Virus genome (UHGV): UHGV-0145753 | Origin: a virus | Length of the DNA: 11,086 bases | Reading direction: 5' to 3' (one strand) | In this document: in pieces, positions 44 to 11,086 of the stretch | Position numbering within the stretch: the stretch's first letter is position 1 | Layout of the letters: each line of letters starts with the position of its first letter | Notes under the pieces: model-generated | What the model saw: only the letters and a program-made list of their open reading frames with translations | Databases searched by the model: none | What the model was told of the DNA's origin: nothing | Position numbers and translations under genes: made by a program

Positions 44-3000
44 CCTGTAGAACAGCCCGATTCGGCTCAGTCAATGGCGCGCTGCCGCATGCTGCTGGCG
101 CTCGGGGAGGGGGAGTTTGCTGGTGGCCTGGATGCGACCCGGATATTCCTGGACGGTACGCCGTTGGGAAACCCCGACGGAACGATGAATTTTGAAAATG
201 TGTCATGGGATTTCCGGCCTGGCACACAGACCCAGACACCAATACCGGGATTCCCTGCAGTCGAGAATGAAACTACGGTTGGGGTATCGCTGACAAAGGC
301 CACACCATGGACCCGCGCACTGAGTAACACCCAGATTGACGCGGTGCTGGTTCGTATTGGCATCCCTGGGTTACAGCAGCAGGAAAACGATGGGGATATT
401 GTCGGCACTACGGTTCAGTACCATATTGATCTGGCGGTGGACGGTGGCGCTTACTCGACAGTCATGACGAAAACCGTCACAGAGAAGCTCAGCTCGCTCT
501 ATGAACTAACCCACCGTATTAATCTTCCCAAAGCCAGCACTGGCTGGCAAATTCGAGTGGTGCGTGACACCGATGACAGCACCAGCCAGATGCTGCAGAA
601 CAAAACGCAGGTGCAAGCGATTACTGAAGTGATCGATGCTCGCCTGCGATATCCACACACAGCGCTGCTGTACGTGTCCTTTAACGCAAAGTCATTCAAC
701 AACATCCCTAAGATTTCCTGCATGCCGAAGGGGCGCATCATCCGAATCCCTTCGAACTATGATCCAATAGCGCGGACTTATAGCGGAACATGGGACGGGA
801 CGTTTAAATGGGGCTGGACGAATAACCCGGCGTGGATTTGGTTCGATGTTCTGACTGAGCCGCGCTTCGGCCTTGGGCGCCGCGTGACGCCAGAAATGCT
901 CGATAAGTGGGAGCTCTATCGCATCGCCCAGCGCTGCGACCAGAAGGTACCCGACGGGAAAGGCGGAAGCGGTACCGAGCCACGCTTCATGTTTGACGTT
1001 TACATCCAGTCCCAGGCTGATGCCTGGCAGGTGATTAAAGATATTGCCGCGGGCTTCAACGGAATGACTTTCTGGGGCAACAACATGTTCAATGTTGTCT
1101 CTGACATGCCGGCGGACACTACGAAGTTGCAGATCCTCACTCGCGCATCAGTGGTGGGTAAGCCGGTGTACTCGAGTGGCAGTGAGAAAAACCGATTCTC
1201 CAGCGCGCTGATTAACTTCAGCGATCCGGATAACCACTACCAGGACCGCACCACGGCAGTGATGTTTCCGGAACTGGTAAGGCAGTTCAAGTTTAAGCAG
1301 ACACAAATCACTGCGATCGGTTGTACGCGTGAGAGCGAGGCGCAGCGGCGTGGCGGGTGGGCGGGGTATTCCAACTCCCTTGACCGCATTATCACGCTTC
1401 AGACTGGACTTGATGGCTTTGTATTTGTGCCGGGCACCGTATTTGCGTTTGCAGATGAACGCCTGTCAGGGCGCGTTTACGGCGGGCGTATCACCGGGTA
1501 TAACGCTGGTCTTAAGGCCGTGACCATTGACCGGGGCACCAGTGCGGTGGCGGGCGATACGCTGATGATTCGCACCCAGGGCGGTACCGTTGAAAGCCGG
1601 GTGATACAGGCCGTAAATGGCACGCAGCTGATCCTGTCCACGCCGTTCACGGCGGCGCCATTACCTAATGCCGTATTCGTCATTGATGCTGGTCAGCTGC
1701 GCCTGCAGTATTTCCGGGTAACGAACCTAAAATTTGATGATGAGGAAAACACCTTCACCATTACCGGTGCGGAGTATAACGCGTCGAAATACGACGCCGT
1801 TGATAACAACGCTCGCCTCGATACTCCTCCGATAAGCCTGATTCCGACCGGGCTAGTTAACCAGCCGACCAACATCGTGGTATCGAGCTATGATGCGGTT
1901 CGCCAGGGGCAACGCGTGGCCACGCTAACCGCCTCGTGGGATGCGCCAATTGATAAAGACGGCAAACTGCAGTCGGACGTAATAGCGTACCGGGCACAGT
2001 GGAAGCGCGGAAATAACGAATGGGTAAACGTGCCTGAAACCGGGTTACGAAATATCGAAGTGCCTGGCATTTTCGAGGGCGATTACCTTGTGCGCGTCCG
2101 TGCGATTAACTCTGGGGGAGCGTCCAGCCTTTGGGCCACGTCTGCGTTGACCCATCTTACCGGCCGCACCGGTGAAGTGCCCAAACCTGTCGGACTAACA
2201 GCAACAGAGGATGTTGTATTTGGGATCAACATTACATGGGGTTTCCCCGCAGATACCGCCGACACCCTGAGCACGGAACTGCAATACAGCGCTTCAGTCG
2301 ATGGGGCAAATCCAATGCTTTTGGCGTCGGTGCCGTATCCTCAGAAACTCTATCAGCAGATGGGGCTGAAGGCAGGGCAGGAATTCTGGTACCGGGCACG
2401 GCTGGTTGACCGCATCGGGAATCAGAGCGACTGGACAGACTGGGTGCGCGGGCAGGCCAGCATCGATGTTTCCGATATCACCGATGCAATCCTGGAGGAC
2501 ATGAAAGGCTCCGATACGTTCAAAGATCTGATCGAGAACGCGGTGGACAGCAACGAAAAAATTGCTGGCATGGCTAACGATATCAAACAGGCTAACGACG
2601 AACTGGAGCAGCAAGCGAAAGATATCGCCAAAAATGCCCAGGACGTAGGGAAGGTTCAGACCAGCGTTAATGAGCTTTCCAGCACGGTCGGGAATGTTTC
2701 GTCTTCACTCAGTCAGCTTGAGCAGACCGTTGCGACGGCTGATACCGCCCTGGGCCAGCGAATCGACAACATCAGCGTTTCTATGGACGGCATGACGGGC
2801 GGGGTGAAGAACTCTGCAATTGCGATAATCCAGGCAAACCTCGCTCAGGTGGCCACGCGTAAAACCCTTTCTGCATCGGTCGCCGGCAACAGCGCGAATC
2901 TGGACCGTATTGATGAGGTGATTGTCAACGACAGGGAGGCAACGGCGCGCTCGCTGCTGAGCCTGCAGACGGACGTTAACGGCAACAAGGCATCCATCAA

Positions 3001-3571
3001 CAGCCTGAACCAGACGTTCTCCGATTACCAGCAGGCTATGGCCACGCAGGTAAACAGCATCACGGCGACGGTGAACGGGCATACCTCAGCCATCACAACC
3101 AACGCTCAGGCTATAGCGAACGTAAACGGCGACCTCAGCGCGATGTACAACATCAAAGTTGGTGTCTCCAGCAACGGGCAGTATTACGCCGCGGGGATGG
3201 GTATCGGCGTGGAGAATACGCCATCAGGCATGCAGTCACAGGTAATCTTCCTGGCAGACCGTTTCGCCGTGACTACTATGGTCGGCGGGACTGTAACACT
3301 GCCGTTCGTTATCCAGAATGGCCAGGCCATTATCAGGGATACAGTCATTGGCGACGGGACCATAAGCAATGCAAAAATTGGCAATTACATCCAGTCGAAC
3401 AATTATGTTGCCGGCTCTGTTGGCTGGAAACTGGATAAGTCCGGGACGTTTGAGAACTACGGTTCGACAGCTGGGGAGGGAGCCATGAAGCAGACCAACC
3501 AGACAATCAGCGTCAAGGATGGCAACAACGTTCTGAGAGTGCAGGTTGGCCGATTAACGGGGGTGTTCTGA
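44..3571 (+). CDS. J: Phage host specificity / tail tip protein J (lambda gpJ family), 5'-truncated at the contig edge
   Basis: Long ORF whose translation aligns by eye with lambda gpJ from near its N-terminus (e.g. RIPSNYDPIARTYSGTWDGTF versus lambda LQVPSNYNPQTRQYSGIWDGTF). The ATG at 29 lies inside the adapter, so genuine coding sequence starts at 44 in the same frame and a few N-terminal codons are missing. Stop TGA at 3569-3571. Confidence 0.9.
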   Translation, partial: PVEQPDSAQSMARCRMLLALGEGEFAGGLDATRIFLDGTPLGNPDGTMNFENVSWDFRPGTQTQTPIPGFPAVENETTVGVSLTKATPWTRALSNTQIDAVLVRIGIPGLQQQENDGDIVGTTVQYHIDLAVDGGAYSTVMTKTVTEKLSSLYELTHRINLPKASTGWQIRVVRDTDDSTSQMLQNKTQVQAITEVIDARLRYPHTALLYVSFNAKSFNNIPKISCMPKGRIIRIPSNYDPIARTYSGTWDGTFKWGWTNNPAWIWFDVLTEPRFGLGRRVTPEMLDKWELYRIAQRCDQKVPDGKGGSGTEPRFMFDVYIQSQADAWQVIKDIAAGFNGMTFWGNNMFNVVSDMPADTTKLQILTRASVVGKPVYSSGSEKNRFSSALINFSDPDNHYQDRTTAVMFPELVRQFKFKQTQITAIGCTRESEAQRRGGWAGYSNSLDRIITLQTGLDGFVFVPGTVFAFADERLSGRVYGGRITGYNAGLKAVTIDRGTSAVAGDTLMIRTQGGTVESRVIQAVNGTQLILSTPFTAAPLPNAVFVIDAGQLRLQYFRVTNLKFDDEENTFTITGAEYNASKYDAVDNNARLDTPPISLIPTGLVNQPTNIVVSSYDAVRQGQRVATLTASWDAPIDKDGKLQSDVIAYRAQWKRGNNEWVNVPETGLRNIEVPGIFEGDYLVRVRAINSGGASSLWATSALTHLTGRTGEVPKPVGLTATEDVVFGINITWGFPADTADTLSTELQYSASVDGANPMLLASVPYPQKLYQQMGLKAGQEFWYRARLVDRIGNQSDWTDWVRGQASIDVSDITDAILEDMKGSDTFKDLIENAVDSNEKIAGMANDIKQANDELEQQAKDIAKNAQDVGKVQTSVNELSSTVGNVSSSLSQLEQTVATADTALGQRIDNISVSMDGMTGGVKNSAIAIIQANLAQVATRKTLSASVAGNSANLDRIDEVIVNDREATARSLLSLQTDVNGNKASINSLNQTFSDYQQAMATQVNSITATVNGHTSAITTNAQAIANVNGDLSAMYNIKVGVSSNGQYYAAGMGIGVENTPSGMQSQVIFLADRFAVTTMVGGTVTLPFVIQNGQAIIRDTVIGDGTISNAKIGNYIQSNNYVAGSVGWKLDKSGTFENYGSTAGEGAMKQTNQTISVKDGNNVLRVQVGRLTGVF

Positions 3572-3572
3572 T

Positions 3573-3875
3573 ATGGCTTATGGAATACAGACCTGGGATG
3601 CTTCGGGAAACCCCAACAACTACGGAATCAAGCCCGTTTCCGTTGTTGGACGTATACAACTTGCCGCCGGACAAAACTCCGGCAGCTGGTCTTTCACTGT
3701 ACCCTCAGGAATGAAGGTCGGTTTTGCGCTCTCACTTGATGAAGGAGGTAACAGCGTAGGGAGGAGCATTGTCGCGTCAGGGAACACAATAACCGTAACC
3801 GCAGCCTCTTCTGTGGGCCTGGGTAATTACCCGGCCTCTAAATGTGAGGTGGTCGTTTTCATGGAGAAAGCATAA
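3573..3875 (+). CDS. Hypothetical phage protein (tail-region accessory), 100 aa
   Basis: ORF starts 2 nt after the J stop with a G-rich Shine-Dalgarno-like stretch upstream; its stop overlaps the next start (TAATG). Shares a WDASG motif with the next ORF. Confidence 0.6.
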   Translation: MAYGIQTWDASGNPNNYGIKPVSVVGRIQLAAGQNSGSWSFTVPSGMKVGFALSLDEGGNSVGRSIVASGNTITVTAASSVGLGNYPASKCEVVVFMEKA

Positions 3876-4549
3876 TGGCCGAATTTGGCGCGATGATATT
3901 AATGGATAACGGGAATCCCTTTGTAACGCCACAATCAACGCCTTTCTGTCTTTACGGGAAGTATACCTTCAATTCATCCGCGAATGGCAGTTCTCAGCAG
4001 GTTGCTCAAAATATCGCTTTAAACGCTGATTACCCAGTGATGGTTTTTATCAAAACCACCAATACAGCACAGCCCACTCCGGTTATGTCTTACAGGAACG
4101 GCGGTAATGTGTATGTTGCTGGTGTTAATCCCTACAACCAAAGTTTCACTTTAACGGCGTACGTTTTTGCCATATTCCCGCAGATATTACCGAAATGGGG
4201 TTTGGCAATATGGGATGCGAGCGGAAAGCTTGTGTTAACTAATGAGTCCCGTGTGCTATCAGACCTGCAGACGGTTGGCACGCCTGGTGCAAACGGCGGG
4301 ATAAATATTGACCAGACGCTGAGCGGGTCATGGGCCGTTGCACCTGCTCAGTTGGGTCAGACCATCATTGTGAATAATTCAACCCGGCCTCCGACTATCT
4401 ACACGATAAATGCTTATTCTTCATGCAGGTTTGACGGGGCCAATACGAGGATAAACGCAGGGGGGACCTCCACTGGGGCAGGTTCACCTGGAGGGGGAAC
4501 GAATACTGGCATTTCATTAACCGCCATAAATACAGCGGCCTATGATTGA
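3875..4549 (+). CDS. Hypothetical phage protein, 224 aa, apparently two copies of the domain seen in the preceding ORF plus a Gly/Thr/Asn-rich C-terminus
   Basis: Start is translationally coupled to the upstream stop (TAATG). Contains AIWDASGKLVL mid-protein and a second weaker DNGNP-type motif near the N-terminus, resembling QTWDASGNP in the 100-aa ORF. Confidence 0.62.
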   Translation: MAEFGAMILMDNGNPFVTPQSTPFCLYGKYTFNSSANGSSQQVAQNIALNADYPVMVFIKTTNTAQPTPVMSYRNGGNVYVAGVNPYNQSFTLTAYVFAIFPQILPKWGLAIWDASGKLVLTNESRVLSDLQTVGTPGANGGINIDQTLSGSWAVAPAQLGQTIIVNNSTRPPTIYTINAYSSCRFDGANTRINAGGTSTGAGSPGGGTNTGISLTAINTAAYD

Positions 4550-4571
4550 TTGATCGTTTTTAGCGATCAAT
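4548..4571. promoter_or_regulatory. AT-rich palindrome ATTGATCG-N7-CGATCAAT with clustered GATC sites; candidate operator or promoter region for the downstream lipoprotein moron
   Basis: Perfect 8-bp inverted repeat (4549-4556 and 4564-4571) immediately after the stop of the 224-aa ORF. A third TTGATC copy lies at 4582-4587, giving three GATC sites within about 35 bp. No T-tract follows, so it is not a typical terminator. Confidence 0.3.
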
Positions 4572-4660
4572 AACATAATATTGATCTATCCAATCAATTA
4601 TACCCACCAGAATTGTATTGTTATCGTCTAAGATACTGAATTCCTCTGGATACTATCAAA

Positions 4661-4894
4661 ATGAGAAAACTGATTATCTGCATGGCAGGCGCTGTCATGC
4701 TTACAGGATGCGCTGGCGTAATTGAGAAACAGGAACCAGTTTGCAGCGGCACTGCAATCGTTGGCGGTCAGGAAACTACGGTTCAGATTTACGGTGTGCG
4801 TAAACAAAACAACCAGACGCAGTACCGGGCTGGATATCCTTTCAGCTGGCGCTGGGTAAGTGCGAATACATTTACCGAAACAACCTGCAAATAA
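4661..4894 (+). CDS. Small secreted lipoprotein (77 aa); position and size consistent with a Cor-like superinfection-exclusion lipoprotein
   Basis: N-terminus MRKLIICMAGAVMLTGCAG has a hydrophobic signal sequence followed by an L-T-G-C lipobox. The gene sits between J and the side tail fibre with its own AT-rich upstream region and a downstream terminator (moron-like). The Cor assignment rests on context only. Confidence 0.65.
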   Translation: MRKLIICMAGAVMLTGCAGVIEKQEPVCSGTAIVGGQETTVQIYGVRKQNNQTQYRAGYPFSWRWVSANTFTETTCK

Positions 4895-4915
4895 CCCACT
4901 ACGCTTAAACATAAA

Positions 4916-4938
4916 CCTCGCTCCGGCGGGGTTTTTTT
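4916..4938 (+). terminator. Putative rho-independent terminator after the lipoprotein gene
   Basis: GC-rich imperfect hairpin (cctcgctccggcgggg) immediately followed by a run of seven T (4932-4938). Confidence 0.5.
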
Positions 4939-4954
4939 ATTGCCTGGAGAAAAT

Positions 4955-5896
4955 ATGCTTTATAACACCGGCACCATCGCCATTAATGGAAATACCGCCA
5001 CCGGGACGGGTACAAACTGGACGGCACCGGCCAGCCAGGTCCGCGCTGGCCAGACGATTATCGTGATGTCTAACCCGGTGCAGCTGTTTCAGATTTCATC
5101 CGTGAACAGCGCCACGTCAATGACGGTAACGCCTGCTGCATCACCGGCGCTGAGCGGCCAGAAGTACGGCATTCTGGTATCAGACAATATCTCGGTTGAT
5201 GGGCTGGCGCTGGCCATGTCGCAGCTTATCAAGGAGTATGACGAGAATATTGGTGCGTGGGAGACGTTCGCCACAACCTCAGCCAACCAGAACATTACCG
5301 TTACGATCAATGGCACCAGTTTATCAATCCCGGCTCTTGGGAAATTACTGCAGAAGGGGAGCAACGGAGCTTTGCCGGTTAATCAAGGTGGTACCGGCGC
5401 AACGAATGCCGCAGACGCTCGCACAAACCTTGGTTTGGGAGAAGGTTCGGTGTTACCCGTTGGTGTGCCTGTTCCGTGGCCTGCAGCCACTCCGCCAACA
5501 GGCTGGCTGAAATGCAATGGTGCGGCTTTTTCTGCTGAAGAATACCCAGAACTGGCAAAGGCTTACCCGACAAATAAATTGCCTGATTTACGTGGTGAGT
5601 TTATGCGTGGCTGGGATGATGGAAGAGGCGTTGATAGTGGCAGGGGGATTCTCACTGCGCAATCTCATGGTATGCCGTCTATTTCAGGAACGTTTAATGG
5701 TCTTTTTGCTGTTAAACAAACAAATGGTTTAGGTGGTGTTTCTGTAGCAAAAAGTACAAATACTGAAACTTTATCTACTTCATCTGGATCAGGTTCCGTG
5801 TTTGATTACACGTTTAATGTCAGCGGTTCGACTCCGGTATCACCAGAACTTCGTCCGCGTAATATTGCATTTAACTATATCGTGAGGGCCGCATAA
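4955..5896 (+). CDS. Side tail fiber protein: constant N-terminal part (to about 5430) fused to the currently expressed variable C-terminal part carrying a phage tail-collar-like domain
   Basis: GGAG Shine-Dalgarno 7 nt upstream of ATG 4955 (the ORF-track start at 4940 is a TTG). The N-terminus MLYNTGTIAINGNTATGTGTNW is fibre-like, and the C-terminal motifs (PTGWLKCNGAAFSAEEYPELAKAY, LPDLRGEFMRGWDDGRG) are typical of tail-collar domains. The left inversion site lies in-frame at 5418-5443. Confidence 0.85.
   Translation: MLYNTGTIAINGNTATGTGTNWTAPASQVRAGQTIIVMSNPVQLFQISSVNSATSMTVTPAASPALSGQKYGILVSDNISVDGLALAMSQLIKEYDENIGAWETFATTSANQNITVTINGTSLSIPALGKLLQKGSNGALPVNQGGTGATNAADARTNLGLGEGSVLPVGVPVPWPAATPPTGWLKCNGAAFSAEEYPELAKAYPTNKLPDLRGEFMRGWDDGRGVDSGRGILTAQSHGMPSISGTFNGLFAVKQTNGLGGVSVAKSTNTETLSTSSGSGSVFDYTFNVSGSTPVSPELRPRNIAFNYIVRAA
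5418..5443. repeat. Left recombination site of the invertible segment (gix/hix/pix-like), crossover dinucleotide TT at 5430-5431
   Basis: CTCGCACAAACC-TT-GGTTTGGGAGAA. Positions 5430-5444 are the exact reverse complement of 7254-7268. The half-site resembles the Hin/Gin-type consensus (TTCTC..AAACC) as I recall it. It is embedded in-frame in the tail-fibre gene (codons N-L-G-L-G-E). Confidence 0.7.
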
Positions 5897-6498
5897 TGAA
5901 TAATGCAGAATTAAATAGTGAATTGATTGCTACTGCGGCAGGGAATATTACCGTTTATAACTATGATTGTGAAACACGAGAATATATTTCCACATCAACT
6001 GAATATCTTGCTGTGGGTGTCGGTATCCCGGCATGTTCCTGTCTGGATACACCAGGTATACATAAGGCGGGTTATGCAATATGCCGCTCTGTGGATTTAA
6101 ATTCATGGGAATATGTGCCAGACCATCGAGGTGAAATTGTCTATAGCACCGAAACGGGAGATACCAAAGAAATCACAGTGCCAGGCGACTATCCCGAAAA
6201 TACAACCACTATCGCCCCGTTAACGCCATACGATAAATGGGATGGTGAGAAATGGGTGACCGATATTGAGGCACAGCATAGCGCCGCAGTAGACGCGGCA
6301 GAAGCGCATCGCCAATCGCGGATTGATGCTGCAATGGCTTCCATCAGTCTGATTCAGCTGAAATTGCAGGCCGGACGTAAACTGACGCAGGCAGAAACAA
6401 CCCGGCTTAACGCTGTGCTGGATTACATTGACGCGGTGGTGGCAACAGATACCAGCACCGCGCCGGATGTCATCTGGCCTGAACTACCGGAGGCGTAG
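5896..6498 (+). CDS. tfa: Tail fiber assembly protein (Tfa chaperone) for the currently expressed fibre variant
   Basis: Start overlaps the fibre stop (TAATG) with a GAGGG Shine-Dalgarno upstream. C-terminal motif LDYIDAVVATDTSTAPDVIWPELP is typical of the conserved Tfa C-terminus. Confidence 0.8.
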   Translation: MNNAELNSELIATAAGNITVYNYDCETREYISTSTEYLAVGVGIPACSCLDTPGIHKAGYAICRSVDLNSWEYVPDHRGEIVYSTETGDTKEITVPGDYPENTTTIAPLTPYDKWDGEKWVTDIEAQHSAAVDAAEAHRQSRIDAAMASISLIQLKLQAGRKLTQAETTRLNAVLDYIDAVVATDTSTAPDVIWPELPEA

Positions 6499-6913
6499 GC
6501 CATTCAATATCTGGAGCACTGGAAATATCGACCATTTCCAGTGCATCCAGATAATCCAGCCACAAATTATATTGTGCCAGTTCCTCACCTTTCAGACGAC
6601 CGATAGCTGCTTTACCAGGCCATTGCTTACCGTTCATGTATTCGTTGGCATGGTCAATTCTCGACTTTTTCTCTGAGTCAGCCGCAGCAAGTTGTTCTTT
6701 ATGCGTAGGTGACGGAAGATCTACCCAGCAAGGCAACCCATCATCACCAATGCCACGCATTTTACCCTCAGGAGCGTTTCCCATGAAAACCAGTGCATCT
6801 TCAGCATCTATATTGATGCCGTCTGACGGCCATGTGCCAGCAGTTAAATAATCATATTTCAGTGCCACAAGATAAAAAGCATTTTCCGTCGGGCTGAATA
6901 CATAGTCGACCAT
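6470..6913 (-). CDS. tfa: Alternative tail fiber assembly protein (Tfa-alt), in the silent orientation
   Basis: Conserved Tfa-type C-terminus (LWLDYLDALEMVDISSAPDIEWPTPP). Preferred start is the ATG at 6913, which overlaps the Sv-alt stop in a TAATG junction mirroring the + strand arrangement and has a GGGAG upstream; the ORF-track start at 6931 would add 6 aa. Its 3' end overlaps the + strand tfa convergently by 29 bp. Confidence 0.72.
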   Translation of the reverse strand: MVDYVFSPTENAFYLVALKYDYLTAGTWPSDGINIDAEDALVFMGNAPEGKMRGIGDDGLPCWVDLPSPTHKEQLAAADSEKKSRIDHANEYMNGKQWPGKAAIGRLKGEELAQYNLWLDYLDALEMVDISSAPDIEWPTPPVVQAR

Positions 6914-7268
6914 TAATATCCCACTCCCCATACTGCCACTGTTGAATTAGATTTCGTGTATGCGCAAGCGGCTTTGAATTTGACCCGGTCAACAATCGCT
7001 GCGCTAACAAAAGGGGCTCCATTAGTCGCGTAGATCACAGAATTGACCAGCGAAGGATTGATGGAAAGGCAAGCATTAGGAAAGGCAACCGGCCATGAGC
7101 CATCAACAACGACCATATTACCGTCGGTAGATTGCGGCACTGATAGCGTCTTCCACTGAAGCAATGCTGTTCGTTGTACTCCACCAATTAATACTGGAAT
7201 AGTGATGTTACCTGCACTGCTGGCTAATGCTGTCGCAGCAGGCATTTTCGCTGCTTCTCCCAAACCAA
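6913..7268 (-). CDS. Alternative tail-fibre variable C-terminal cassette (Sv-alt), promoterless and startless; it would be fused in-frame to the constant part after inversion
   Basis: The minus-strand reading frame is open from the right inversion site to a stop at 6913-6915. Across the site it encodes V-G-L-G-E, matching L-G-L-G-E at the left site in the same codon phase, so recombination at the central dinucleotide keeps the frame. The ORF-track start at 7287 is a TTG beyond the crossover. Confidence 0.62.
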
Positions 7269-7280
7269 CCTTTTTTATAA
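7255..7280. repeat. Right recombination site of the invertible segment (gix/hix/pix-like), crossover dinucleotide AA at 7267-7268
   Basis: TTCTCCCAAACC-AA-CCTTTTTTATAA. Its left half and centre are the exact reverse complement of the left site's right half and centre. It lies about 60 bp upstream of the invertase start. Confidence 0.7.
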
Positions 7281-7339
7281 CCATCAAAAATCTGGTGATG
7301 CTTCGCCGTTTCTCCTGTTTTCATAACAGGAGAAATCCC

Positions 7340-7888
7340 ATGATTTACGGTTATGCCCGAGTATCAACAAACCACCAGGACACTGAATTGCAACTAACGG
7401 CGCTCAAGTCAGCGGGTTGTGAGAAAATTTTTGAAGAGCATGCCAGCGGGAGGAAATCGAATCGGCCGGTTCTAAAACGGCTGATCGCCACTATGCAGCC
7501 GGGGGATGAACTGGTGGTCTGGAAGCTGGACAGGATAGGCCGCAACGTTCTGCATGCGCTGTTGATGTTCCAGCAGTTACAGGAAAAGGGTATCAACTTC
7601 CGCAGTATTACCGATGGCGTGGATCTCAAAACAGCCAGCGGCCGCTATAACTTTCGTAACATCCTTTCCGCAGCACAATATGAATCTGATCTTAATAGCG
7701 AACGTACCTTAGCAGGGCTGGCCGTAGCCAGGGCAAAAGGGCGAGTTGGTGGTCGCAGGCCTAAGTTCACGGATGAGCAATGGCGGGAAATGGGGGAGCG
7801 GATGGCAACCGGTGAATCACGACAAAGCGTATCAAAAACGTATGGAGTAGGGCTCTCAACTCTGTATAAAAAGTTTCCAGCTAGCTGA
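7340..7888 (+). CDS. Site-specific DNA invertase, serine recombinase of the Hin/Gin/Cin/Pin family
   Basis: AGGAGA Shine-Dalgarno 7 nt upstream of ATG 7340. N-terminus MIYGYARVSTNHQDTELQ has the catalytic Ser at position 9 (Gin: MLIGYVRVSTNDQNTDLQ) and the C-terminal helix-turn-helix ends GLSTLYKKFPAS (Gin: ALSTLYKKHPAK). About 182 aa; the upstream in-frame extension in the ORF track (from 7202) overlaps the inversion site and is not used. Confidence 0.93.
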   Translation: MIYGYARVSTNHQDTELQLTALKSAGCEKIFEEHASGRKSNRPVLKRLIATMQPGDELVVWKLDRIGRNVLHALLMFQQLQEKGINFRSITDGVDLKTASGRYNFRNILSAAQYESDLNSERTLAGLAVARAKGRVGGRRPKFTDEQWREMGERMATGESRQSVSKTYGVGLSTLYKKFPAS

Positions 7889-8136: not shown

Positions 8137-8164
8137 CATTGCGTGTAGCTTTGAGTGGGCAACT

Positions 8165-8207
8165 TTGTGTACACTTTTGTGTACCCAAAAACAAAAATGT
8201 GTACCCA
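8165..8207 (+). repeat. Three direct copies of a TGTGTAC(C) motif just upstream of the integrase start; candidate integrase arm-type or regulator binding sites
   Basis: TGTGTAC at 8166-8172 (within the palindrome GTGTACAC), 8178-8184 and 8198-8204. The last two are TGTGTACCCA 10-mers spaced 20 bp apart. A fourth TGTGTAC lies at 7922-7928 in the hairpin loop after the invertase. Confidence 0.45.
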
Positions 8208-8211
8208 TTCA

Positions 8212-9405
8212 ATGATCACCGACACAAAGCTCAGGAAGGCGCTCGGCAAGAAAAGAGATGATATCGAGATTATTTCTGATTCGCACGGGCTCAACGCCAG
8301 AATCAGCCAGGCCGGAAAAATATCATTTTTCTATCGGTATCGCTGGGCCGGTAAAGCGGTAAAACTCAATGTTGGTGATTATCCTGCAATGAGTATCACC
8401 CAGGCAAGAGAGCGTCGCCAACAATTCAGAAACTGGTTAACTGAGGGACTGGATCCGCGAGAGCAGGTGAAGCTGGATAAGCAGACCCGACAGGAAGCGA
8501 TGTCCGTTGCCGAAGCGTTCAATTACTGGATTGAAAGGCACTGTATCGCTAACGGGCTAGTTAAAGTCGATTACTATCGCCAGGTGTTTGAGAAACATAT
8601 CGCCGAACCGATGAAGAATGTCAAAGTCGATAACACAGCGAAAATGCACTGGATCAACGTCTTCGATTCTATAGAAAGCAGGGTGATGGCTCATTACATG
8701 CTTTCGCTGTGCAAACGGGCGTTTAGGTTCTGCGTTAACAGAAGTGTGATCGCCTCAAACCCACTCGAGGGATTACTGCCATCTGATGTCGGGCAAAAGC
8801 CTAAAAAGAGAACTCGCAGGATGGACGATGACGATCTGCGCAAAATCTATCAGTGGTTGAAAAGCCATATGTCGATAGAGTCCGTTTTCCTGGTGAAATT
8901 TATTATGCTTACCGGATGCCGTACGGCTGAGATTCGACTTAGTGAGAGATCATGGTTTCGATTGGATGATAATGAGTGGGTCGTGCCTGCGGGCAGTTAT
9001 AAAACTCGGGTACATATTAGAAGGGGGCTCTCAGACGCCGCCGTTAACTTGGTCAGAAATCACCTCAAGAAAATAAACACCAATCACCTGGTGACTTCAC
9101 AACGTAAAATTGATGGCGGGATCAAAGATTCGCCCGTTCATTCACCTGTGGCATCCAATTACGCCCGTTCTATTTGGAATGGAACAGGTATGGCAGAGTG
9201 GTCGCTTCATGATATGAGGCGGACGATAGCCACAAATCTCTCTGAGTTAGGTTGCCCGCCGCACGTAATTGAAAAGCTACTTGGTCATCAGATGGTCGGT
9301 GTAATGGCTCACTACAATCTGCACGACTACATCGATGACCAAAAACACTGGCTCCACGTTTGGCAGAGCCATCTTGAAAGTATCATTGGTGAGCCATTCA
9401 GTTAA
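8212..9405 (+). CDS. int: Tyrosine site-specific integrase, P4-type (N-terminal arm-binding domain plus C-terminal catalytic domain)
   Basis: N-terminus [17 protein letters not shown]...[23 protein letters not shown]...[18 protein letters not shown] fits the P4-integrase arm-binding pattern. The C-terminus has the catalytic signature ([19 protein letters not shown]...AHY). Start chosen at ATG 8212; the ORF track begins at an upstream GTG (8155) that would put the repeats inside the coding sequence. No strong Shine-Dalgarno at either. Confidence 0.9.
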
Positions 9406-9598
9406 TTGGCTGTTTCACACCTTCCCACTCTTTGACTGACTCCGACTTCCAGCGGTTTGGGTTACCAGGAAAATCAGGAGCAGGGAACGGCTTCGCAAAA
9501 CCCCGCGGCATAGTTTCTGTGCTTTGCCATGACCAAAGGGTTTTACGTGAGATTTTGTATCGACTGGTCAGGTCTGACGTCAGCAAAATATCATCCAT
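9398..9598 (-). CDS. AlpA/Xis-like small helix-turn-helix protein (putative excisionase or recombination directionality factor, or transcriptional regulator)
   Basis: 66 aa with GGAG Shine-Dalgarno 9 nt upstream. The pattern ...[11 protein letters not shown]...FPAP..........W....VKEW resembles AlpA (..RATIYDWL..ATFPKK......W.EAEIDEWL). It is convergent with int and overlaps its 3' end by 8 bp. Confidence 0.55.
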
Positions 9599-10448: not shown

Positions 10449-11086
10449 TCAGCCCACGTATTCCGGTTTCATATCTGCCAGGGTAATGCTGAACTTATCG
10501 TGCAGCTCGTCGCCCAGATGACGTTTCGCCGTTGCCAGAACTCGCTCAACTTCCCCGAAACGCGCTGCTGCATCCGGTTCGTCCGGAGACGGTAGGGAGT
10601 TGATCGCGGCCTCAACCTTGTTACGTGAATCAACCAGGTAATAGCGTTTTACTGCTTTGTTCTTCAGTTCGGTGAACAGGGCTGAACCCAGTGTGGCCTT
10701 CGCACTTTCGATATCAGCGCGTAGTGCTTTGGCGCTATCAACATCCTGTGCGGCATCGATGCGTTCGCGGAAACCATCTGCCAGTGAGTCGATGTTTCCT
10801 GATTTTTCCTGCTTGCTCTGCGTGGTTGTTATGGTGTCACCTGAAATTTCAGACAGGCTAACGTGTTGCGCCGGAGCAGGGTTAACTTCTCGCTCTTCAC
10901 GGCGATCATCCAGTTCATCAGGGGTATACACGCCGAGAATTACATCCGGGCAGAACAGTCTCGCCCAACGTTTCACGGCGAGATAAGCGAGCTGCTGGCG
11001 AGGGTCGTCAGCCCAAAGCGTTGAATTACGAGTCCTGGCCTGTGCCAGTAGCAGGTCAAGTTCCCTCGGTTGATCTTCACCTTTCA
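10449..11086 (-). CDS. Hypothetical protein, 5'-partial (reading frame open to the window end)
   Basis: The minus-strand frame has no stop from 11086 down to the stop at 10449-10451. The ORF-track start at 10976 is a GTG and the frame continues upstream (...LWADDPRQQLAYLA), so the gene begins beyond the window. Charged, Ala-rich, helical-looking sequence; function not recognised. Confidence 0.5.
   Translation of the reverse strand, partial: KGEDQPRELDLLLAQARTRNSTLWADDPRQQLAYLAVKRWARLFCPDVILGVYTPDELDDRREEREVNPAPAQHVSLSEISGDTITTTQSKQEKSGNIDSLADGFRERIDAAQDVDSAKALRADIESAKATLGSALFTELKNKAVKRYYLVDSRNKVEAAINSLPSPDEPDAAARFGEVERVLATAKRHLGDELHDKFSITLADMKPEYVG

Follow-up and report, generated by a model that had tools for sequence, protein, structure and literature searches.

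A phi80-type cor cassette in virus genome UHGV-0145753 and a candidate OxyR/Dam-type element in its upstream region

The cor gene and its product

The DNA considered here is an 11,086-nucleotide stretch of the virus genome UHGV-0145753 (the window), and the focus is a 405-nucleotide cassette at positions 4550–4954 that contains cor, the gene for a phage exclusion lipoprotein. The cassette is certainly that of a phi80/mEp237-type lambdoid prophage, and its identity is already known rather than new, since the protein and DNA are identical to published ones, the family matches agree, and the gene is annotated in GenBank. As a discovery, cor is an ordinary one: a textbook phi80 gene has been rediscovered with an identical sequence. 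The unreported part is the palindromic region upstream of cor, which looks from its sequence like a candidate for a methylation-sensitive OxyR on/off switch. The analysis also places cor in a conserved J-gp22-gp23-cor receptor module, provides an independent structural link between Cor and the FhuA-bound Llp protein of phage T5, and recognizes in the AT-rich palindromes a conserved OxyR-type element with three GATCs. Taken as a whole, the locus is very likely best explained as a phi80-type cor cassette with its own transcription, a product that would inactivate FhuA, and a candidate OxyR/Dam element upstream.

The cor open reading frame (ORF) has 77 codons and its product is MRKLIICMAGAVMLTGCAGVIEKQEPVCSGTAIVGGQETTVQIYGVRKQNNQTQYRAGYPFSWRWVSANTFTETTCK. 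The predicted lipoprotein signal peptide, MRKLIICMAGAVMLTG followed by CAG, has a basic n-region and a hydrophobic core, and its lipobox, L-T-G-C, makes Cys17 the lipidated residue. These features bear out the initial annotation, which had called a 77-amino-acid lipoprotein gene at this place. The residue at +2 after the lipidated Cys is Ala, with no Asp, which agrees with a type II signal peptide. Under the +2 rule of Escherichia coli (E. coli), an Ala following the lipidated Cys leads to outer-membrane sorting, and Cor is expected to be sorted to the outer membrane because of it. Mature Cor also carries two conserved cysteines, Cys28 and Cys76, that would form a putative disulfide. Conservation across 47 aligned homologues is at least 90% for G16, C17 and C28, while C76 does not vary at all.

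A homology search against Cor proteins had been proposed in the initial annotation as a check on its assignment of the gene to the Cor type, and the search confirms the assignment. The protein is 100% identical to the Cor proteins of phi80, mEp237 (JQ182730) and mEp213 (the last by tblastn), and the coding DNA is identical to phi80 cor at 234/234 positions. The NCBIfam equivalog NF047972, "phage exclusion lipoprotein Cor", matches residues 1–76 with 140.9 bits against a curated cutoff of 31 bits, and PHROG 1119 matches with E = 7e-37. Homologues form 113 clusters across the Enterobacterales, almost all of them named Cor. No Pfam family covers Cor or the products of the two preceding genes, gp22 and gp23, and a PADLOC scan gave no hit.

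The gene at the same position is annotated cor in the records of phi80-like phages. In the phi80 record (FN582354), it is labelled a moron whose product is said to block the TonB-dependent FhuA receptor of the outer membrane, and the signal peptide, lipidated Cys, -35, -10, start site and terminator are all marked. The HK022 record likewise labels cor a moron gene product with a role in phage exclusion. The cassette overall is 99.8% identical to those of HK140, mEp213 and mEp043 and was found in 45 of 5,426 complete E. coli genomes. More broadly, the window resembles phi80-like lambdoid phages (mEp237 95%, phi80 91% and HK225 97%, over the shared parts of each) and E. coli prophages integrated beside yciI. 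The closest known system is the superinfection-exclusion lipoprotein Cor of phi80, to which the Cor proteins of N15, HK022 and mEp167 also belong. The likeness to phi80 at the cor locus extends to the protein, the coding DNA, the terminator, the lipobox and the place after J-gp22-gp23. The difference lies in the 111-nucleotide upstream region, which is only 81% identical and yet retains the GATC element. The features of the locus are listed in Table 1.

Table 1. Features of the cor locus and its neighbours in the window
Feature	Position	Strand	Basis and remarks
Central tail fibre / tip protein J	44–3571	+	5' end lost at contig end; Pfam Phage_Tail_Tip, FNIII-A_GpJ, Phage-tail_3
gp22-like protein, 100 amino acids (N15 gp22 family)	3573–3875	+	PHROG 557, E = 3e-36; phi80 record: similar to N15 gp22
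gp23-like protein, 224 amino acids (N15 gp23 family)	3875–4549	+	PHROG 425, E = 2e-80
Three-GATC element	4549–4589	none	Dyad ATTGATCG-N7-CGATCAAT plus third arm ATTGATCTAT; candidate OxyR site
Conserved block CCAATCAATTATACCC	4590–4605	+	Conservation profile; holds the phi80-annotated cor -35 at 4597–4602
Extended -10 element TGTTATCGT	4619–4627	+	-10 and start site of FN582354 mapped by alignment; predicted start at about 4635
cor gene (prolipoprotein, 77 amino acids)	4661–4894	+	Signal peptide 4661–4708; codon of lipidated Cys17 4709–4711; mature protein of 61 amino acids
Intrinsic terminator of cor	4913–4941	+	Fold prediction; also annotated in the phi80, mEp237 and mEp213 records
Side tail fibre gene (Collar domain), assembly gene next	ATG at 4955	+	Domain and PHROG searches

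A conserved three-GATC element upstream of cor

Between the stop codon of gp23 and the ATG of cor lie 111 nucleotides (4550–4660) with a G+C content of 30.6%, compared to 51% for the window. The AT-rich palindromic region noted in the initial annotation is indeed present and contains two overlapping, perfect 8-nucleotide inverted repeats. The first pairs ATTGATCG (4549–4556) with CGATCAAT (4564–4571) and the second pairs GATCAATA (4565–4572) with TATTGATC (4579–4586), the middle arm being common to both. Each arm holds one GATC, at 4552, 4565 and 4583 (a spacing of 13+18), such that all three fall within 35 nucleotides and at approximately -83, -70 and -52 relative to the annotated cor start. 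No further GATC occurs anywhere between 2530 and 5305.

Bases 4553–4589, which read ATCGtTtttAgCGAT-caataac-ATAAtAttgAtCTAT, match the OxyR consensus used here, ATAGnTnnnAnCTAT-N7-ATAGnTnnnAnCTAT, at 16 of its 20 specified positions, each half-site contributing 8/10. This is the sole site in the 11-kb window to score at least 13. A score of 16 was reached by one of 200 dinucleotide shuffles of the window and by none of 2,000 shuffles of the spacer. A possible second half-site in the "reduced OxyR" geometry is located at 4584–4598 (7/10). Among 46 loci, the best match to the OxyR consensus in the whole locus sits 104–108 nucleotides before the cor ATG in 33.

The element is also conserved between phages. 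The pattern (A/T)(C/T)GATCG-TTTnnAn-CGATCAAT-N8/9-ATTGATCT(A/G)T, with all three GATCs, is found in approximately 35 of 40 cor loci, and conservation of the three GATCs reaches down to about 50% Cor identity. It is kept in Enterobacter, Rahnella, Hafnia, Citrobacter, Kluyvera, Phytobacter, Kosakonia and others, while the spacer and most of the remaining upstream sequence cannot be aligned across cor loci. The element is carried by the phages phi80, HK022 and mEp237 and by about 45 complete genomes of E. coli. From these comparisons, the AT-rich palindromes are a conserved three-GATC element of the OxyR/Dam type that is absent from existing annotations. Boxes for Fur, FNR (TTGAT-N4-ATCAA), IHF and Zur were considered for the same region and rejected on account of a wrong spacing or of needed bases that would fall in the variable spacer.

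Known OxyR/Dam systems and spread of the element

The cor element may be compared with three known systems, agn43 of E. coli, mom of phage Mu and gtr of phage P22, which also have clustered GATCs inside sequences resembling OxyR half-sites. When the same consensus scoring was applied to them, agn43 scored 14 and both Mu mom and P22 gtr scored 13, and the score of 16 for the cor element exceeds all three. The GATC spacing at agn43 is 19+13, near the 13+18 of cor; the agn43 site differs in that it lies downstream of the transcription start while the cor element lies upstream. The spacing at Mu mom, 18+13, mirrors that of cor, and the mom GATCs are at a roughly comparable distance upstream of com/mom. 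The mom promoter is said to be located there and to be regulated by OxyR and Dam, reportedly from the work of Bolker and Kahmann in 1989 and that of Hattman. As a difference, mom also requires the activator C.

The closest likeness in sequence is to P22 gtr. The arms of the cor dyad, which are seven nucleotides apart, are identical to the two GATC-bearing OxyR half-sites of gtr, ATTGATCGgtaacaaCGATCAAT and ATTGATCGcttgtatCGATCAA (OxyR(A)/(C)), for which OxyR binding, methylation sensitivity and methylation protection have been demonstrated experimentally (PMC2909390). The two sites differ in number, with four GATCs and three half-sites at gtr and three GATCs at cor.

Viral contigs were scanned for the dyad, which turned up at more than 120 loci; 80 of these were read. 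The dyad adjoins cor in 38 of the 80, and the third GATC is found exactly 18 nucleotides from the dyad in 72. The non-cor loci (IMG/VR) include O-antigen O-acetyltransferase genes, a fibre-adjacent secreted protein of 89 amino acids that is divergent from the fibre, and a distant, divergent Cor. The dyad was also observed beside a membrane ORF of 40–56 amino acids divergent from a P2-type tail sheath gene, and beside a 47-amino-acid ORF (MELNQEEAE...). Loci L063, L073, L076 and L061, within the series L055–L134, are examples of the dyad beside other accessory genes. The T1 cor locus (L175) has no such GATC cluster. From its distribution, the 13+18 GATC element looks like a portable OxyR/Dam regulatory module for surface-modifying prophage morons.

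Transcription of cor

As shown in Table 1, a plausible promoter for cor is provided by the extended -10 element TGTTATCGT. A generic σ70 scan did not single this element out; it is annotated in FN582354 and its distance to the upstream element is conserved. The cor -35 is poor, and the start site given in FN582354 may itself be a prediction. In 29 of the 41 distinct regions upstream of cor, the motif TGnTAnnnT is placed exactly 66 nucleotides from where the dyad starts. A different promoter proposed by the generic scan, TTGATC-18-CATAAT at 4550–4579, was rejected because CATAAT falls in the non-conserved spacer of the three-GATC element. At position 4621, the window has a private G to T substitution compared to mEp213, mEp237, HK140 and approximately 40 near-identical E. 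coli prophage copies. The substitution lies at the unconstrained "n" of the TGn extended -10 and is probably neutral.

The hairpin and T7 terminator that the initial annotation placed after the gene are both present, spanning 4913–4938. The hairpin (4913–4934) has a 9-base-pair stem with five G-C pairs and a UCCG loop, and the T7 tract is located at 4932–4938. The folding energy is -15.7 kcal/mol (z = -3.1 compared to shuffles). The phi80 record marks this terminator as a terminator for the opposite strand too. Thus, in the prophage, cor is predicted to be transcribed independently, from the extended -10 with a start at about 4635 to the hairpin and T7 terminator. An antisense ORF of 94 amino acids at 4628–4912 was taken to be a chance occurrence and rejected because divergent cor loci lack it; the longest antisense ORF there has a median of about 35 amino acids.

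The cor cassette as a moron and as part of a receptor-specificity module

The initial annotation had presented cor as a self-contained moron inserted between the J-associated genes and the tail fibre. The location is as described, with gp23 ending at 4549 and the fibre ATG at 4955, and the moron layout is supported by the FN582354 and HK022 records, both of which call cor a moron gene. The description as self-contained stands in part. In its favor are the terminator, the plausible promoter and a mosaic boundary; against it are the regular position of cor behind gp22 and gp23 and a base composition like that of its neighbours.

The mosaic boundary is sharp. Identity to phi80 is 100% over 4643–4954, a stretch that opens about 20 nucleotides ahead of the cor ATG and runs up to the start codon of the fibre gene. 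The cor coding sequence plus terminator is identical at 294/294 positions, compared to 81–89% for gp22, gp23, the upstream spacer and the fibre N-terminus. This boundary points to a recent exchange of the transcribed cor cassette alone. Among loci, Cor identity does not co-vary with gp23 identity, and 111 Klebsiella phage records contain gp23 of which just two contain Cor. The presence or absence, or independent exchange, between related phages that is expected of a moron is therefore found for cor. There is no compositional contrast, as the G+C content of the cor coding sequence (48.7%) is similar to that of its neighbours (48–52%) and only the upstream spacer differs.

With respect to position, usable flanks were available for 40 cor loci, which came from Enterobacter, Rahnella, Serratia, Hafnia, Citrobacter, Kluyvera, Erwinia, Pantoea, Phytobacter, Kosakonia and Siccibacter, and cor directly follows J-gp22-gp23 in 38 of them. 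In virulent FhuA-dependent T1-like and Dhillonvirus phages, the order is J, gp22 and gp23 followed by cor on the opposite strand (convergent), with a gp23-cor spacer of approximately 20–35 nucleotides and no GATC cluster. In temperate phages, cor is co-oriented with gp23 and separated from it by the 111-nucleotide regulatory spacer. From the linkage in these loci and the adjacency in T1-like phages, it follows that cor is not an insertion that floats freely but moves together with the receptor-specificity locus downstream of J.

At the site where this phage has gp22-gp23-cor, λ has lom. The λ lom gene, a moron at the J-stf junction, is similar to cor in its site and in being a small autonomous unit expressed from the prophage. 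HK97 gp15 is also a moron-encoded exclusion protein, but it is found elsewhere in its genome. Compared to the morons at the J-stf junction of lambdoid phages, cor differs in that gp22-gp23 and a J tip of FhuA type nearly always accompany it; it therefore acts as part of a receptor module rather than as a sporadic insertion. Thus, within a module for receptor specificity, cor is the arm that provides exclusion, and in temperate phages cor has been given an independent transcription unit.

The neighbouring genes also bear on which receptor is used. Over its C-terminal 150 amino acids, J shares 88% identity with phi80 J and 98% with mEp237 J, compared to about 19% with λ J, and by this comparison the C-terminal domain is of the phi80 (FhuA) type. 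The gp23 protein is 54% identical to its T1 homologue over the full length and approximately 58% identical to Dhillonvirus homologues; several Dhillonvirus phages, including Teewinot, bob and Envy, are FhuA-dependent (PMC10373560). In Drexlerviridae and related siphoviruses, the true determinant of receptor specificity is found in a locus directly 3' of gpJ, in which one protein family is FhuA-specific and is accompanied by accessory and exclusion proteins (PMC8594841; bioRxiv 2026.04.02.716166). Because of the phi80-like J tip, the T1- and Dhillonvirus-like gp23 and the receptor locus downstream of gpJ, use of FhuA as the receptor, which the initial annotation had suggested, is well supported from sequence. 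Within this locus, gp23 is probably the FhuA-specific receptor-binding or accessory protein, gp23 being chosen over gp22 by inference, and gp23 rather than J itself may be the adhesin.

Action of Cor on FhuA and possible phase variation

The Cor proteins of HK022, N15 and phi80 protect lysogens from FhuA-dependent phages by receptor inactivation at the cost of ferrichrome uptake (PMC3594210). The exclusion and impaired FhuA transport caused by Cor of phi80, N15 and HK022 are attributed to Uc-Mass 2004, as cited in PMC3594210. A protein with a known mode of action is Llp of phage T5, which binds a non-native conformation of the FhuA plug while loops EL7 and EL8 fold inward, and its authors propose a like mode for Cor proteins (PMC9586334). 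The best structural match of Cor in the PDB is FhuA-bound Llp (8A60 chain B), over nearly the full length, and the two may be said to share a fold. No sequence homology to Llp was found, as a phmmer search of Cor against PDB sequences returned nothing. In common with Llp, Cor has a conserved disulfide, putative in the case of Cor. A difference between the two systems is that in T5, a virulent phage, llp belongs to the early lytic genes, while cor is expressed from the prophage.

By analogy, the evidence supports a mode of action for Cor like that of Llp, from which FhuA binding would follow. In the model that is considered likely, the 61-amino-acid mature Cor, stabilized by the Cys28-Cys76 disulfide, would hang from the inner leaflet of the outer membrane and bind the periplasmic face or plug of FhuA as Llp does, so that loops fold in and hide the phage site. 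According to the literature on this protein family, Cor produced in a lysogen inactivates the FhuA transporter, and for this reason phi80, T1, T5, N15, HK022 and the phage itself are excluded and less ferrichrome is taken up through FhuA. It is unlikely, by comparison, that Cor blocks FhuA phages indirectly, through other outer-membrane proteins or a general envelope change instead of Llp-like plug binding. Such an indirect action would fit a sequence identity between Cor and Llp of just 13–20% or so and a preprint in which the molecular mechanism of Cor is described as not yet elucidated (bioRxiv 2026.03.26.714494); it does not account for the nearly full-length match to FhuA-bound Llp or for the common disulfide, and a Cor-like accessory protein of phage Rtp has been reported on the periplasmic face of its receptor LptD (bioRxiv 2026.04.02.716166).

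By analogy with the OxyR/Dam systems described above, Cor-mediated exclusion has about an even chance of being phase-variable through an OxyR site at 4549–4589 that competes with Dam methylation. The step on which this depends, in which occupancy of the candidate OxyR site at -86 to -46 competes with methylation, is judged to be just as finely balanced. If it occurs, lysogens would differ from one another, in a heritable way, in their expression of cor and so in how they trade phage resistance against ferrichrome uptake. Clonal lysogens would be split into Cor-ON cells, in which FhuA is jammed and which resist phi80, T1, T5, colicin M and albomycin but do not take up ferrichrome, and Cor-OFF cells with a working FhuA. 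If OxyR and Dam make Cor bistable, receptor-level exclusion by the prophage would be a form of bet-hedging between phage resistance and siderophore uptake, parallel to the gtr and opvAB systems of Salmonella, and would account for the partial sensitivity of some lysogens of FhuA-using phages. Since the module is also found beside other surface-modifying accessory genes, the 13+18 arrangement would then serve prophage morons as a portable cassette for epigenetic bet-hedging.

Several points weigh against this proposal. The left arm of the second half-site (positions 23–26 and 28) is not conserved across loci, which makes the OxyR binding geometry uncertain, and the CAAT and ATTG beside the GATCs, among the most conserved bases, fall at N positions left unspecified by the OxyR consensus. 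The regulation might be of either sign, as activation would follow gtr OxyR(AB) and repression would follow mom. In the literature searched, outside which the primary Cor papers lay, no link of cor to OxyR or Dam was found; methylome papers on E. coli ST131 and O111 report no unmethylated GATC near cor, and Microcolony-seq and Salmonella methylome papers contain no relevant mention. The half-site, the conserved bases outside the consensus and the silence of that literature would all be expected if Cor were made constitutively from a simple moron promoter while the palindromes served some other DNA-level purpose, such as binding of a non-OxyR LysR-type regulator or another protein, SeqA sequestration, or an UP-like or architectural role. 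SeqA would be suited by the 31 base pairs, or three helical turns, between the GATCs at 4552 and 4583. Constitutive expression without phase variation is a tentative possibility on this evidence. It leaves aside that at its 16 specified bases the dyad agrees fully with P22 gtr OxyR(A)/OxyR(C), that the three-GATC layout recurs at Mu mom and, as 13+19, at agn43, and that the consensus score is above that of all three proven sites.

The palindromes might also be read as RNA, in which case they would serve the late J-gp22-gp23 transcript as a 3' hairpin, terminator or attenuator, or would control read-through into cor. The arms could form two mutually exclusive hairpins through the common middle arm, a 61-nucleotide RNA folds at -13.9 kcal/mol (z = -3.5), and the element begins at the gp23 stop codon. 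Neither hairpin is followed by a U-tract, however, and the GATC cores of the arms are invariant over approximately 40 loci with no compensatory changes while the loops vary. Because the U-tract is missing and conservation of the arms is of sequence rather than of pairing, the RNA reading was rejected as highly improbable. It is at odds also with the presence of the same element, in either orientation, near unrelated genes (O-acetyltransferase, P2-like sheath), and with its identity to a proven protein-binding DNA site at P22 gtr.

Other features of the window

The left end of the window contains an untrimmed Illumina Nextera adapter at 10–43 (GTCTCGTGGGCTCGGAGATGTGTATAAGAGACAG), of which 25–43 is the mosaic end. 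Since the contig begins with adapter, the 5' end of J is missing and an apparent GTG start at 29 is an artefact.

Downstream of the cassette, 4955–7888 has the organization of an invertible tail-fibre switch for host range. Behind the fibre gene (4955–5896) and assembly gene (5896–6498), the minus strand encodes alternatives, namely an assembly gene (6470–6931) and a fibre C-terminus (6913–7287). The invertible segment is bounded by 20-nucleotide inverted repeats at 5425–5444 and 7254–7273 (AAACCTTGGTTTGGGAGAAG) and is followed by a Pin/Gin-type serine invertase at about 7340–7888. At this place, phi80 has only pseudogene fragments and pinL.

Positions 8155–9598 contain a tyrosine integrase (Arm-DNA-bind_3 and Phage_integrase) and, behind it, a small ORF on the minus strand that is placed like xis in phi80. 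The matches to E. coli come to an end next to yciI, in the region where phi80 attaches. At the right end, a RecT fragment is located on the minus strand at 10449–10976.

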